From assembly GCA_030648035.1 (NCBI GenBank), contig JAUSII010000035.1, forward strand, positions 15,611-79,610: DNA of 64,000 nucleotides, read 5' to 3'. The position numbers and the translations under genes are program-made. Source of the stretch: Deltaproteobacteria bacterium (GTDB taxonomy: Bacteria > UBA10199 > SPLOWO2-01-44-7). Every line of letters begins with the position of its first letter. The first letter of the stretch is position 1. The notes beneath the pieces were generated by a model. It saw nothing but the letters and a program-made list of their open reading frames with translations, ran no database searches and was not told the DNA's origin. This document shows positions 15,182 to 38,051 of this stretch, piece by piece.

Positions 15182-16467
15182 GGCCGCAATTCGTAAATCA
15201 TCCACTCTGAAAAACTTGTCGGTCCGGCATGCTTGGGCTGGTCTCCATCCCAGAGTTCAAACGAAACGTAGCCCACATCTGTAAGGGGGGCTTTGTTGTC
15301 ATTCGAAGGAGCGCGGGATCGTTTCAAAATAACGTGCCATTCCCCCTGGTCATAAACGCCATTGGCCAAAACACCGTTGTCTTTCCATTGCCAGAGGTCG
15401 ATCTTTTGGGAAGAGCTTCCAATTCCCAAATAGGGGAGATCTGCGGGGTTCGAAATTTTGTCCATCGGAAGTTGAATGGCCACCCCGTCATTTTGATTGG
15501 AATCTCTGTCGGCTTTGTCGTCTGCCCATCGGAGATAAAAAGCGACCTCTTCCTCTGTATGAAGCGCCTGCACTGTTATCCACTCTGTATTGCCCGGCTC
15601 ATGCCAAAGCGGCTTTAAAAAGACGGGAATTTTGGGAGACTTGGCCCAGGCTTCTTCCTTATAGTTCATGGGAATTTTGCCGTTTATCTTGTTGATGATG
15701 AGCAGGTTTCTTTTCGGATTGGAAGGATCGTAGTCCTTGGGAAACGGTTTTTGTATCGACTGGATGTAGTGGACCAGCGACCACAACTCTTTTTTGGTGA
15801 AAGTCTGTTCATAGCTGGGCATCGGCGTTCCGGGAACGCCAATCATCAGTGTGCGATAGATATCTCTGGGAAGATTGCCCCATTTGAGTGGTCCTTCTGT
15901 CAGATCGCGTGGTGCAATGCGGTCGCCCCAGACATCTTTTAAAACAATGGCTCCGGGACCATCCCCTTTTCCTCCCGGACCATGGCAGGCAATACAGCCC
16001 CTCTTCTCATACAATTGTCTTCCTTCTTGTATCGATTCGGGTGTTGTCTTGGTCTCTTCTGGAATATCGATCGGTGCCCCCTGTTTTTCGCTCGAGAGCT
16101 TGGGGGAAAGGGTTTTGAAATAGGTCAAAATGGAATACCAATCGTTTGTTTTGAGCACATCCCAGCCCGGCATGGAGGAGCCGGGGATTCCCATTTTCAT
16201 GGTTTGCAAAAGATCGAGGTCAGTGGGTATCAGTCCGCGATGGGTCCGGTATTTGAAAATGCCGATGGTGAAATCTCTCGGCTTCGGCCAGAGCAAACTG
16301 GCGGCGGGTCCTTTTCCATCCCCCTGATTGCCGTGGCAGGAGGCGCAGTGGACTGTATACAGTGCTTTGCCGCGTTGCATGGAAACTTCGCTGCTGGAAT
16401 CGCGGCACGATTTTTGGCAAGAGGTTGTGAGTAGAAGCAGAGCGACCAGCAAAAGATTTTTTTTCAT
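15178..16467 (-). CDS. Diheme cytochrome c fused to an EB_dh/DOMON-like (ethylbenzene-dehydrogenase gamma-type) heme-binding domain
   Basis: Signal/lipoprotein-like N-terminus and two class-I-type sites (HCASCHGNQGDGKGP, GCIACHGPGGKGDGPG). The C-terminal part reads ITVQALHTEEEVAFYLRWADDKADRD...DGVAIQLP...IDLWQWK, typical of EB_dh-like domains. Confidence 0.55.
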   Translation of the reverse strand: MKKNLLLVALLLLTTSCQKSCRDSSSEVSMQRGKALYTVHCASCHGNQGDGKGPAASLLWPKPRDFTIGIFKYRTHRGLIPTDLDLLQTMKMGIPGSSMPGWDVLKTNDWYSILTYFKTLSPKLSSEKQGAPIDIPEETKTTPESIQEGRQLYEKRGCIACHGPGGKGDGPGAIVLKDVWGDRIAPRDLTEGPLKWGNLPRDIYRTLMIGVPGTPMPSYEQTFTKKELWSLVHYIQSIQKPFPKDYDPSNPKRNLLIINKINGKIPMNYKEEAWAKSPKIPVFLKPLWHEPGNTEWITVQALHTEEEVAFYLRWADDKADRDSNQNDGVAIQLPMDKISNPADLPYLGIGSSSQKIDLWQWKDNGVLANGVYDQGEWHVILKRSRAPSNDNKAPLTDVGYVSFELWDGDQPKHAGPTSFSEWMIYELRP

Positions 16468-34453: not shown

Positions 34454-36189
34454 AGGGCTTCTCCTTGGTTAAATGATCGCGATAAATTTTCGGTTTGAAA
34501 AGGGAGGCCGCCCGAACGGCTGATCTGGATAGCCTTTTCATCCAAGACCCCAATTGCTTTAAGATGATGACAAAGTTGCCCCTGAAAGTTCATTTCCCAA
34601 ACAACCACAGATTTTTTTTCGGCCAGAAAATTTTTCAATCCCTTTTGCGGAAAAGGATGCAAAATCTCCGGAATAAAAACGGCATAATCAGGATTTTCTA
34701 AAACCCATTCTCTGGCCACACCGGCGGAGCTTCCCCAGGCAATCAGGGCATGCGTGGCCTTGAGGTTGCCATAAATATGAAACCAGTCTGCGGTGGTCTC
34801 TTTCAATAATTCCATTTTTTTGAAACGCTTGAGGTTCATCTCTTCATGCAGATCGCCATCGGCAGAAGGGCTTCCCTTTTCCGTGTGCTCAATGCCGGCA
34901 ATGCAGTGCATTCCGCCGGACATTCCGGGAAGGGCCGTCGCATTGATCCCGTTTTGGTCGGAGAGAGCTTCCAGATTAAAGCGTTTATAATTTTCATCGA
35001 TGCGCTCAGGGAGCAGTCTTTTGGCGACCGGAAAATGGGATGTGTCGACCGGATCAATCACCTCGGAACGTTGGGCAATGTTGGCATCGGACAAAACAAT
35101 CACCGGCAACTGAAAATTTTCAGCGCAATGGAAAGCGCGAAACAGGGTGCGATAACAATCGCGCACATCGGTCGGAGCCAATACGACGCGCGGAAAATCA
35201 CCATGCCCACCGTAAATAGCGTGCCATAAATCAGACTGCTCGGTGCGCGAGGGGAGGCCGGTGGCCGGTCCCGCTCTTTGACAGTCGACCACCACCACTG
35301 GAATCTCCACCATGCTCGAGAGCCCCAGCAACTCGGTCATCAAAGAGAGTCCCGGTCCGCTGGTGGCGGTCATGGCGGGGATGCCTCCAAAACTGGCACC
35401 AATCACCATCCCCAATGCCGCGATTTCGTCTTCAGCCTGAATCAATCTCCCCCCGACTTTAGGGAGCAGTTCGTACATCGTCTCTAAAATTTCAGAGGAG
35501 GGGGTAATCGGATAGCCGGCGTAGAAACGGCAACCAGCGGCCACAGCGGCATGAGCAGAGGCCTCATTGCCGGTGAAAACCGGTCTCACCATCTCTTGTT
35601 CAATCAAAAGTTTTTCAATCCCCAAATCGTCCTTTTGAAGATAATGATAGCCGATTTCCAACGCGCGCAGATTGGAAGAAACCGTCGCCACCGTTTTATG
35701 GGCGAAAATATCTTGCACGCATTTTTTCCCATGTTCCAAATCCATTTCCAACGCTTTCAAAATAATGCCAAAGACCAAAATATTTTTTGCGATTTCAGGA
35801 AGCTCATTTTTTTCTAAAATTTCGTTAAAGGCGATGGGGATTTGTTGCTGGCTGTTATCCCTGAATATTTTTGGAATATCCTTTTCCTCTGCGCCGTAAA
35901 GAATAATGCATCCTTTTTTGGGTTGGATCTCTTTTTCAAAACGAACCGCATCTGAAAATCGGAAGCAGACGATAAGATCTTTTATTTTGTCGACGGTCCT
36001 CACCGGCTCTGTTCCCAATGTTATGTGTGCTGCCGCTTCTCCGCCGCGTATTTGCGGACCGTAACTCTGCATCATCATGCCGTAGAGACCCATTTGGGCC
36101 GCGGTTTTGAGCAACATGGAGGCAGAACTCATTACGCCATCTCCACCGCTGCCGATCAGGGAAATGTTGAGGGACTGGTTGTTTTTCAT
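34450..36189 (-). CDS. korA: 2-oxoglutarate/2-oxoacid:ferredoxin oxidoreductase alpha subunit (fused gamma-alpha type)
   Basis: IGSGGDGVMS gamma-type N-terminus and YAGYPITPSSEILE alpha motif. ATG 36189 overlaps the rnfB stop (ATGA). The 71 upstream codons of the track ORF lie inside rnfB. Confidence 0.8.
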   Translation of the reverse strand: MKNNQSLNISLIGSGGDGVMSSASMLLKTAAQMGLYGMMMQSYGPQIRGGEAAAHITLGTEPVRTVDKIKDLIVCFRFSDAVRFEKEIQPKKGCIILYGAEEKDIPKIFRDNSQQQIPIAFNEILEKNELPEIAKNILVFGIILKALEMDLEHGKKCVQDIFAHKTVATVSSNLRALEIGYHYLQKDDLGIEKLLIEQEMVRPVFTGNEASAHAAVAAGCRFYAGYPITPSSEILETMYELLPKVGGRLIQAEDEIAALGMVIGASFGGIPAMTATSGPGLSLMTELLGLSSMVEIPVVVVDCQRAGPATGLPSRTEQSDLWHAIYGGHGDFPRVVLAPTDVRDCYRTLFRAFHCAENFQLPVIVLSDANIAQRSEVIDPVDTSHFPVAKRLLPERIDENYKRFNLEALSDQNGINATALPGMSGGMHCIAGIEHTEKGSPSADGDLHEEMNLKRFKKMELLKETTADWFHIYGNLKATHALIAWGSSAGVAREWVLENPDYAVFIPEILHPFPQKGLKNFLAEKKSVVVWEMNFQGQLCHHLKAIGVLDEKAIQISRSGGLPFQTENLSRSFNQGEAL

Positions 36190-37046
36190 ACCGATTCCTT
36201 TCTGGATATTTCCGGCAACGGATTTTGCCCCGGCCGGTGAAGTATAAAAGTGGGACAGACATCGACGCAAATTTCTTTGCATTCCGGACCGAAGGCGACA
36301 CACGCTTTGTGATTGATCAAAATTGTCGTGCCGTTCCAGCCGATCGCTTTGGTTGGACAGGCGTTCACACATTTTTGGCAGGTGGTGCAACCGATGAGGC
36401 ACTTGGCCCGAACAGCCGAGACTTTTTCTTTAGCCACACACGAGAGTTCAATGCGGCGCTGTCGCGGATACATTTCGAGAATATTTTTTGGGCAGACCGC
36501 AATGCAGAGCGCGCATCCCGTACATTTTTGAGAATCGATTTCAACGATTCCCTTGTTGTCGATCTGCATCGCATCAAAAGGACAGGCTCGCACGCAGTCG
36601 GCCAATCCCAAACAGCCGTTTTTGCAGGCCCTCGGTCCGCCAAAAATGAGAGCCGCGCCGGCACAACTGTGAATGCCAAGATACTCTGCCTGATCTTTCA
36701 CATAGGCGGTGGTGCCGTGACAGCGGAGAACGGCAATTCTTTCTTCGACCACCTCCGGCATTTTGCCGGTCAGCTCTGCAACAATTTTTGCCGTGTCTGC
36801 ACCCCCCGGAACACAAAGGCTGGCCGATGTTTCCTTGTTTTCGACTGTGGCTTCAGCATAGGCTTCACAGCCGGCAAAACCGCAGGCGCCGCAATTGGCC
36901 GATGGAAGTTGCGAGCGGACTTTATCAACCGTCGGATTCGATGGAACATAAAAGCGCCTTGCGGTTGCGGCGAGCGCAAATCCGAAAAAAATACCGAGCA
37001 ATGTAAAGACGGCCACTCCCCAAAGCGCCATCGATGTCAGTTCCAT
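36186..37046 (-). CDS. rnfB: Rnf complex subunit B
   Basis: N-terminal TM helix, CGACGFAGCEAYAEA motif and several 4Fe-4S motifs (CLGLADCVRACP, CTGCALCIAVCP, CTTCQKCVNACP, CKEICVDVCP). ATG 37046 is preferred; a GTG at 37094 is also possible. Confidence 0.85.
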   Translation of the reverse strand: MELTSMALWGVAVFTLLGIFFGFALAATARRFYVPSNPTVDKVRSQLPSANCGACGFAGCEAYAEATVENKETSASLCVPGGADTAKIVAELTGKMPEVVEERIAVLRCHGTTAYVKDQAEYLGIHSCAGAALIFGGPRACKNGCLGLADCVRACPFDAMQIDNKGIVEIDSQKCTGCALCIAVCPKNILEMYPRQRRIELSCVAKEKVSAVRAKCLIGCTTCQKCVNACPTKAIGWNGTTILINHKACVAFGPECKEICVDVCPTFILHRPGQNPLPEISRKESV

Positions 37047-37063
37047 AGATTTCCAGTCAAAGT

Positions 37064-37209
37064 GGTTGTGTGAATTATTGATTTGGAAAGGCACACGGCT
37101 CCTGGCGGGTCGGCCCGCCAGGCCCGCTTGGTGTCGGCGATTTTATTTTATATCCCGTTTGATAAAATCGCCTTCCGCAAGCCTTTCCAAATCAATAATT
37201 CACACAACC
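37064..37209. repeat. 146-nt structured element bounded by a perfect 29-bp inverted repeat, in the rnfA-rnfB gap
   Basis: GGTTGTGTGAATTATTGATTTGGAAAGGC (37064-37092) is the exact reverse complement of 37181-37209. The 88-nt interior holds two more perfect hairpins: 9-bp CCTGGCGGG/CCCGCCAGG at 37101-37122, and 11-bp GGCGATTTTAT/ATAAAATCGCC at 37136-37172. Confidence 0.9.
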
Positions 37210-37217
37210 TCCTCGTG

Positions 37218-38051
37218 TTAAATTTTCAAACCCGAAAAGCCCAAAAACGCCAAGGCAAAAAGACCGGCCAAAATAAAAGCAATTGGCAAACCTTTGAAAA
37301 ACGCCGGCACAGGTGCGAGGTCGGCCTTCTCTCTCGCGCAACTCATCAAAAATAGGGCCAGCGCAAATCCAAGACCGGAGCCTATTGCCAGTGCCAATGA
37401 TTCCCAAAAGCCGGTGTTGTTCATGGCGTTGAGCAGGGGGACCGCCAAAATAATGCAATTAGTTGTGATCAAAACAACATAGATGCCGAATTTTTTATGG
37501 AGTGGGCGGTTTATTTTTTTCAACACGGTGTCTGTCATTTGCACCAGAAAAGAGATGATGCCGATGAAGACGATGATCTGGAGAAAATCGAGTTTGAGCG
37601 GCCCCAGCACAAAACGGTTGATAATCCACGCCAACAGTCCCGAAAGAATGCCGACAAAAGTAAAAGTGACCCCCATGCCGATGGCAGTTTCGCGTTTGCG
37701 GCTCACACCAAAAAAAACGCACAGACCCAGATAGCGGGTGAAAACAAAATTCTGCACCAGACAGGCCGTGAGCAAAACGCTGAGAACTGTGCCTACCAAA
37801 GAGGGGGCCATATGCCATTGCATTCCCGTTGGGCGAAGTGTCAGTTGATAAGAGCCGTTTGGATCGAGTGTGGTCTGTGTTGTCAGAAGAATATGTTGTG
37901 GTCTTCCCTGCACACTTTCCGTTTTTGTAATGGCCAGCGGAATATCGGGGTCCTGTTTTGTTTGAAGCCGAAAATCATTTGGGGCGACCGTTAACGGCTG
38001 TGGAAGAATAATTTCTATTTGATGATCGTTTAAAAATTGGGCATCAGACAT
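37218..38051 (-). CDS. rnfA: Rnf complex subunit A with an in-frame N-terminal extension of about 80 aa
   Basis: The C-terminal 197 aa, from M at 37811, form a canonical six-helix RnfA (FTRYLGLCVFFGVSRKRETAIGMG). The frame stays open upstream to ATG 38051, which overlaps the rnfE stop (ATGTCTGA). Confidence 0.8.
   Translation of the reverse strand: MSDAQFLNDHQIEIILPQPLTVAPNDFRLQTKQDPDIPLAITKTESVQGRPQHILLTTQTTLDPNGSYQLTLRPTGMQWHMAPSLVGTVLSVLLTACLVQNFVFTRYLGLCVFFGVSRKRETAIGMGVTFTFVGILSGLLAWIINRFVLGPLKLDFLQIIVFIGIISFLVQMTDTVLKKINRPLHKKFGIYVVLITTNCIILAVPLLNAMNNTGFWESLALAIGSGLGFALALFLMSCAREKADLAPVPAFFKGLPIAFILAGLFALAFLGFSGLKI

Follow-up and report, generated by a model that had tools for sequence, protein, structure and literature searches.

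Between rnfA and rnfB, in the ten-gene apbE-rnfCDGEAB-korAB-mae operon of a Deltaproteobacteria bacterium, lies a 146-bp palindromic element with perfect 29-bp terminal inverted repeats. The window analyzed here is a 64,000-nt stretch of contig JAUSII010000035.1 (assembly GCA_030648035.1, contig positions 15,611 to 79,610), and the element occupies positions 37064-37209 of that window. Judging from the sequences of related operons, the 171 nt that separate the two genes are shown to be a lineage-specific insertion and not a conserved regulator of the rnf genes. We consider it probable that this insertion is a palindrome resembling MITEs (miniature transposable elements bounded by inverted repeats) or REP repeats, lodged in a permissive junction and co-transcribed with the operon, where it would uncouple rnfA from rnfB and offer a plausible site for RNase III cleavage or a barrier to decay. 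The element is a real feature of a known kind, without detectable relatives.

The 146-base palindrome is real, and every statement about its sequence in the initial annotation, which was made from the letters of the window, is correct. A repeat search recovers the two terminal arms (37064-37092 and 37181-37209), 29 nt each, 100% complementary and 88 nt apart, together with two inner perfect hairpins of 9 bp (37101-37109/37114-37122) and 11 bp (37136-37146/37162-37172), the latter extendable to a 21-nt arm at 81%. The 29-bp repeat is the sole inverted repeat in the window with separated arms and a seed of at least 12, and no further match to the 29-mer turns up in the window when up to three mismatches are allowed (none is expected from 100 shuffles). 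The element has no gene of its own, and the open frames that cross it are by-products of the palindrome. Folded as sense RNA it reaches -92.9 kcal/mol versus -43.9 +/- 3.9 for shuffled sequences (z -12.5), with a pair probability of at least 0.99 for all 29 stem pairs; the antisense strand folds at -87.3 kcal/mol. In a sliding-window fold across the whole window this segment has the lowest energy. The predicted fold agrees with the proposed structure resembling a three-way junction on the mRNA.

The element sits in the only gap of the operon. The genes are on the minus strand, and 171 nt separate the rnfA stop codon TAA (37220-37218) from the rnfB ATG (37046-37044). Every other junction is an overlap, six of them ATGA and one, at rnfE/rnfA, the 8-nt ATGTCTGA. 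The ATGTCTGA start implies an RnfA N-terminal extension of ~85 aa that is kept in five orthologues; since it is conserved, the extension is coding, rnfE/rnfA is a true overlap and rnfA/rnfB is the only gap, as first reported, and a hidden second gap at rnfE/rnfA was dropped from consideration. The distances given for the element, 8 nt from the rnfA stop and 17 nt to the rnfB ATG, also agree with the coordinates. Pfam confirms ApbE, the Rnf subunits, the two oxidoreductase subunits and malic enzyme. An rnfB start at the in-frame GTG 37094, inside the element, was rejected because the homologs all start with MEL or MDL.

Is the palindrome part of the design of the operon or an addition to it? 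The initial annotation had left this decision to the orthologs. Apart from an identical protein, the closest RnfB relative among 5.8 billion proteins is 76% identical, and in the loci that encode it (L012-14 in our numbering) rnfA and rnfB overlap in the ATGA manner (TTATGA). In a 72% relative (L015, of the 'Deltaproteobacteria bacterium RIFCSPLOWO2_12_FULL_44_12' type) the overlap is TAATG, and the last RnfA and first RnfB codons match those of the window. The blastn alignment of L015 with the window ends at 37218 and restarts at 37046; because it breaks exactly at both codons, all 171 nt (37047-37217) are extra, made up of 8 nt, the 146-bp palindrome and 17 nt. The element is also missing from the same junction in a third lineage (L091) and is thus a presence/absence polymorphism. 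The element is also present in an independent Logan assembly of run SRR13727527 (L010), which matches the window at 100% identity along 5,360 bp, and it is therefore not an artefact of assembly.

What do other lineages carry at this position? A long hairpin occupies the rnfA/rnfB junction in four of seven related lineages, or five of eight when the window is counted (Table 1), while a long spacer is found at rnfE/rnfA in none of the eight and at rnfB/korA in one. The window spacer has no significant similarity to the spacer of any other lineage (local alignment, z below 0), and among themselves the L086, L089 and L093 spacers are no more than marginally similar. The orthologs therefore speak against conservation of sequence and for a recurrent hairpin at this position. 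In a neighbor-joining tree of RnfB, lineages with and without a spacer are interleaved. The core of the L086 spacer matches the Rfam family WsnRNA46 (RF02625) at 39.8 bits (E 3e-7), below the gathering score of 65.3, across the motif GUCAyCCC...GGGaUCCAGAa...CUGGAuUCC...UGAC. By eye, L089 shares GGGG-TCCAGAA...CTGG; its alignment to L086 reaches only z 2.4, and it has no WsnRNA46 match. The palindromic repeat of these two spacers (L086:1030-1200 and L089:1061-1200) can be written GTCAYCCC...GGGRTCCAGAA...CTGG...TGAC. From its sequence, this WsnRNA46-type pattern looks like a dispersed palindromic repeat rather than an RNA specific to rnf, and the Rfam family itself (Wolbachia sRNA 46) may be a widespread MITE-like repeat. 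Different repeat types in one intergenic slot of related genomes are a known pattern for REP/BIME-type repeats. Mobile-type palindromes appear to settle at the rnfA/rnfB junction, a position that is at least permissive and possibly favored.

Two properties are common to the five spacers: stability is somewhat greater for the sense than for the antisense fold, by 1.2-6 kcal/mol, and G-U pairs are commoner in the sense strand. This bias hints weakly that the mRNA form is of consequence. The flanks beyond the stems pair no better than expected by chance. In L090 a 109-nt G+C-rich spacer separates rnfB from korA (L090:2215-2323), and a 17-nt stretch of it resembles the L093 rnfA-rnfB spacer in opposite orientation (z 5.7 versus shuffles). 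Upstream insertions were considered as the source of the long RnfB homologs P0017 and P0020 and dropped, as the extra length is C-terminal.

How would such an insertion act? We picture a palindrome that inserted into a junction with an ancestral overlap (TAATG or ATGA), or took the place of what the junction contained, and left both reading frames intact. No sigma-70-like promoter is found on either strand of the element, which would be transcribed within the apbE-rnfCDGEAB-korAB-mae mRNA. On that mRNA it is predicted to form a perfect duplex of 29 bp closing a three-way junction, lengthened to at most 34 bp if a weak basal helix is added, a possible pairing of CGAGG (37215-37211) with CUUUG (37062-37058) in which three of the five pairs are G-U. 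Direct stop-start coupling from rnfA to rnfB would be lost. The sole Shine-Dalgarno-like motif for rnfB is GGAAA (37054-37050), 3 nt ahead of the AUG in the 17-nt flank, and the flank that carries it has an unpaired probability of 0.3-0.5 in the ensemble; rnfB would now rely on this weak motif just 3' of the stem. The element probably folds itself out, leaving the rnfA stop and the rnfB start ~25 unpaired nt apart.

The same duplex may matter for the life of the transcript. RNase III requires an RNA duplex that runs unbroken for about two turns or longer, and the stem supplies 29 consecutive Watson-Crick pairs; it is thus a plausible RNase III substrate and could also be a barrier to 3'-exonucleases. 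The ten-gene transcript could then split into rnfCDGEA and rnfB-korAB-mae portions with different lifetimes. An RNase III/E processing or stabilizing role, one of three suggested at the outset, is compatible with the structure, and the unrelated hairpins at this junction in four of seven related lineages lend it some indirect support. On the simplest account, the junction tolerates the insertion of self-folding palindromes, and different mobile-type palindromes would have settled at it across lineages, the window carrying one of them.

An inserted MITE is the best supported of those three roles, the element being a candidate member of a MITE family. In favor of the insertion are its absence from orthologs, a 13-nt terminal core in common with an IS630 family, and the anatomy: MITEs are under ~300 bp, non-coding and bounded by terminal inverted repeats, and the element has 146 bp, no gene and 29-bp perfect arms. 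The perfection of the arms argues for youth or for homogenization of the arms at the DNA level.

Several results weigh against a mobile element, chief among them the lack of a second copy. The window holds one copy, a weak test given that the search within the organism's own genome spans only these 64 kb, and the wider searches returned no other in any collection. The exact 29-mer and a gapped pattern built on the inner arms are absent from 185,579 GTDB genomes, a window-specific 21-mer from JGI metagenomes, and the core pattern from viral contigs. Among plasmids and phages, blastn aligns the 171 nt only by chance, over ~40 nt within coding genes. None of 5.8 billion proteins matches a peptide from the six frames of the element, and an exhaustive phmmer search of 1.84 billion representatives returned only a spurious tandem-repeat open reading frame. 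Furthermore, the flanks (...GAGGA/GGTTG...CAACC/ACTTT...) contain no direct repeat of 2 nt or more, in agreement with the original remark that a target-site duplication is missing. TA dinucleotides are confined to the outermost positions of the 171-nt insert and do not restore a viable empty site, and a simple 146-bp insertion into TAATG leaves the 8-nt and 17-nt flanks unexplained. The outer portion of the IS630 terminal repeat, described below, is also missing, and the window holds no IS630 transposase. Two isolated matches were set aside as chance: one to the core pattern with a non-T flank in JGI metagenomes (L029, where the tandem repeat is eukaryote-like), and one of 16 nt to the inner arm inside a coding gene of L058.

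The insertion can be compared with several known systems. Among the closest are the Correia/NEMIS elements of Neisseria, which are non-coding, 100-155 bp long, bounded by ~24-26-bp terminal inverted repeats and often co-transcribed in operons; their transcripts form long hairpins that RNase III cuts in the repeats, and ERIC elements alter mRNA stability when co-transcribed (PMC10969869, PMC2229807). By analogy with both, the window element could alter how abundant the two halves of its transcript are relative to each other. Correia/NEMIS elements differ in having hundreds of copies, a TA duplication and a defined consensus, whereas the window element has one copy, no duplication and an unrelated sequence. 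The ERIC/IRU and REP/BIME repeats of enterobacteria are imperfect palindromes in transcribed intergenic regions of operons and shift the stability of upstream relative to downstream mRNA (PMC2229807). They differ from the window element, with which neither has sequence in common: ERIC has 7-bp contiguous terminal repeats and acts through RNase E, and REP units are ~35 nt long and linked to RAYT transposases. REP/BIME units are defined as ~20-40-nt self-complementary sequences with a GTAG-type 5' tetranucleotide, whereas the 29-nt arm is not self-complementary and lacks a GTAG motif. The WsnRNA46-like repeat occupies the same junction in L086-88 (its core motif in L089) as a long rod-like hairpin of similar length; the window element, in contrast, does not match this family and lacks the GTCA...TCCAGAA...CTGGA...TGAC motif.

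A more specific origin is suggested by the outer 12 nt of each arm. The pattern GGTTGTGTGAAT-N95-125-ATTCACACAACC finds 13 loci in GTDB versus ~0.1 expected for random sequence, all in metagenome-assembled genomes of Chlamydiota or Verrucomicrobiota, with 2-3 copies in several of these genomes. The 13 loci are one family with a longer conserved terminal repeat, TATACCGCGCCCGCTTAGGTTGTGTGAATTT, and variable, hairpin-forming interiors; its MITEs are 125-140 bp long, multi-copy, and all start with TATAC. Searching with a single arm gives 57 loci, including ~20 copies in one Chlamydiae genome (CAVSSM01). The single-arm search also yields a full-length insertion sequence of 1,175 bp (L031:5195-6369) with 28-nt perfect terminal repeats (TATACCGCGCCCGCTTAGGTTGTGTGAA); an A9 run splits the HTH_23/HTH_33 and DDE_3 domains that it encodes, and the product name of this transposase at NCBI is IS630 family transposase. 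From the domains and the name, the family is an IS630 insertion sequence with its MITEs. In a limited literature search we found no published description of this family, which the two phyla share, and the 12-mer returned only polymerase chain reaction primers.

Does the window element belong to this family, as a non-autonomous IS630 MITE mobilized in trans by the transposase of a related Chlamydiota/Verrucomicrobiota insertion sequence? We regard this as a lead and not as membership, and on the sequences at hand as doubtful, if worth pursuing. The outer 13 nt of the window arms (GGTTGTGTGAATT) are the invariant core of the 28-31-nt IS630 terminal repeat and stand in both arms at comparable spacing; the size class and hairpin interior are alike, as in RUP of Streptococcus pneumoniae and the L016-L028 family, and RUP with IS630-Spn1 provides a precedent (PMC2229807). 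However, only 13 of the 28-31 terminal-repeat positions are in common. The outer 17 nt (TATACCGCGCCCGCTTA), where cleavage would occur, are absent at both ends, no TA adjoins the arms, and the interior is unrelated. The 64-kb window contains no IS630 transposase, no partner transposase is known in the organism, and the host lineage belongs to a different phylum-level group. We had considered the motif a trait of related IS630 terminal repeats; this was dropped, since IS630 relatives with 50-54% identity have quite different ends that lack it. Moreover, with very many inverted-repeat families in 596 Gb, one 12-mer coincidence is not negligible.

Copies of the IS630/MITE family are at L016-L028 and L030-L078. 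The A9 split in the L031 transposase could be a frameshift. In the CAVSSM01 subfamily the two ends differ, with GGTTGTG versus TTTTGAG ahead of TGAATTTTG. A Chromatiales genome (L071:2900-3030) has REP-like hairpins (GTAGGGYCGAAT...) in a 56-nt tandem whose spacer unit holds the 19-mer GCTTAGGTTGTGTGAATTT of the IS630 terminal repeat, probably by coincidence. Single-arm 19-mer matches in Bacteroidota were discarded as a conserved coding gene.

Could the hairpins instead be inherited? An ancestral, clade-wide rnfA-rnfB hairpin may have been selected on the mRNA for differential stability or translation, its arms co-evolving until similarity was erased, and three lineages may have lost it. Several observations fit: the hairpins of five of eight lineages lie at exactly rnfA/rnfB, with almost none at neighboring junctions; the L086 spacer has the same length as that of the window, 171 nt; both present a short basal helix, an A-A mismatch and a long stem followed by GGAA and AUG; and the sense bias in fold stability and G-U pairs holds in all five spacers. 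We nevertheless find this, the main rival, improbable. The window spacer resembles no other (z below 0), and the architectures differ, being a rod, a three-way junction or two separate hairpins. Given the interleaving in the RnfB tree, in which the nearest relative of the window has a clean ATGA, an ancestral hairpin would need several precise losses. The resemblance of L086 to the WsnRNA46 repeat and the core motif of L089 point to imported rather than inherited sequence, and stems perfect over 16-29 bp look young.

A related view, with which the ancestral hairpin overlaps, is that the presence of a very stable stem-loop is conserved at the junction and its sequence is not: the slot would be refilled by whichever palindromic element lands there, be it the window element, a WsnRNA46-like repeat or another, and the stem-loop would partition the rnfCDGEA and rnfB-korAB-mae parts of the mRNA. 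We rate this as no likelier than the inherited hairpin. If true, it would amount to domestication by position and shape rather than by sequence.

The third role suggested in the initial annotation, a protein- or ligand-binding regulatory RNA, does not survive the comparison. A dedicated riboswitch, protein-binding site or attenuator for rnfB-korAB-mae would suit the three-way-junction shape and the position immediately upstream of rnfB, but the orthologs largely refute it and we hold it to be very improbable. The element is absent from the nearest orthologs, and its spacer has no significant similarity to the spacers of other lineages and no loop or junction nucleotides conserved in common with them. 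Rfam gives no match in the window at gathering thresholds and none in a permissive E-value search of the whole window, with only generic microRNA-hairpin noise at the element. No terminator-like site, that is, a hairpin with a U-tract, is found on either strand, and perfect Watson-Crick arms are typical of DNA repeats and not of aptamers. Least credible of all is a spurious, assembler-made palindrome: palindromes do disturb assemblies (the L093 contig ends in the spacer and L025 has an inverted duplication), but L010 is identical over 5.4 kb, the element is internal to a long contig, its arms are not copies of neighboring sequence and both flanking reading frames are intact.

Why should a lineage-specific palindromic insertion of this kind matter? 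The element itself is ordinary, a small palindromic repeat caught inside an operon; its structure, its insertion, the lack of conserved sequence and the recurrent hairpins at the junction are shown, and from these we infer mobility, RNA processing and effects on expression. An overlapping-gene operon for a membrane redox complex tolerates a 171-nt, -93 kcal/mol hairpin between two of its subunits. The more useful point is comparative: in five of eight lineages unrelated long hairpins occupy a single junction, with hardly any at other places in the operon. Should selection and not tolerance be the cause, nature would here offer a clean example of mobile palindromes that serve as interchangeable modules for partitioning mRNA, and a testable handle on the levels of RnfB and 2-oxoglutarate:ferredoxin oxidoreductase relative to the Rnf membrane core.

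Table 1. Features around the rnfA/rnfB junction of the window, and the same junction in related lineages (window coordinates or, for other lineages, locus numbers).
Feature	Position or locus	Strand	Remarks
rnfA coding sequence, 278 aa, of which ~85 aa are a clade-specific N-terminal extension	37218..38051	-	Pfam Rnf-Nqr, E 9e-51; aligned with five orthologs
Whole 171-nt intercistronic insertion	37047..37217	-	versus orthologs with overlapping rnfA/rnfB; L015 blastn break
5' flank of the element on the mRNA, 8 nt (CACGAGGA)	37210..37217	-	minimum-free-energy fold
Terminal inverted repeat of 29 bp, 5' arm in mRNA orientation (GGTTGTGTGAATTATTGATTTGGAAAGGC)	37181..37209	-	first 13 nt = IS630 terminal-repeat core GGTTGTGTGAATT
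Inner hairpin, 11-bp stem (GGCGAUUUUAU / AUAAAAUCGCC), 15-nt loop	37136..37172	-	repeat search and fold
Inner hairpin, 9-bp G+C-rich stem (CCUGGCGGG / CCCGCCAGG), 4-nt loop, no U-tract following	37101..37122	-	repeat search and fold
Terminal inverted repeat of 29 bp, 3' arm in mRNA orientation	37064..37092	-	
3' flank of the element, 17 nt (ACUUUGACUGGAAAUCU; also ACTTTGACTGGAAATCT)	37047..37063	-	read from sequence
rnfB coding sequence, 286 aa, start ATG 37046-37044	36186..37046	-	starts of homologs
Lineage P0006, RnfB 74%	L086-88		171-nt spacer that folds as a rod (-91 kcal/mol); palindromic core enclosed by perfect outer stems of 10 bp and 16 bp
Lineage P0012, RnfB 71%	L089		140-nt spacer; 14-bp stem and inner hairpin
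Lineage P0020, RnfB 71%	L090		103-nt spacer; ~25-bp near-perfect TA-flanked hairpin and second hairpin
Lineage P0011	L093		contig ends 53 nt upstream of rnfB within a hairpin-rich spacer (spacer at least 53 nt)
Lineage P0014	L091/92		only 15 nt

The edges of the insertion hold further signals. In the 5' flank, GAGGAGG is Shine-Dalgarno-like, and the 5' edge of the insert as a whole (37198-37216, minus strand) reads GAGGAGGUUGUGUGA, in which a strong Shine-Dalgarno-like motif precedes mini-frames (GUG-UGA or GUG-AAU-UAU-UGA), the whole lying inside or adjoining the stem. Specific sequestration of the rnfB ribosome-binding site by the 3' end of rnfA was considered and dropped, as flank-flank duplex energies are no better than those of shuffles in any of four lineages.

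Elsewhere in the dataset, palindromic elements are found where assemblies go wrong. At the L025 contig end an inverted duplication reaches at least 46 nt past the MITE, and the L093 contig breaks within the rnfA-rnfB spacer (L093:1-53). On a scaffold with the 76% RnfB relative (L011:3576-3760), foreign, G+C-rich sequence of ~185 nt stands in place of the 3' part of rnfA; this RnfB also occurs on three other contigs, all intact, and L011 is probably a chimeric assembly.

The RnfA extension (37797-38051, minus strand) is absent from canonical RnfA proteins of ~190 aa, and no Pfam domain covers it. Its invariant residues include H10, R28, L29, D36, I37, T57, T58, D63 and Y68.

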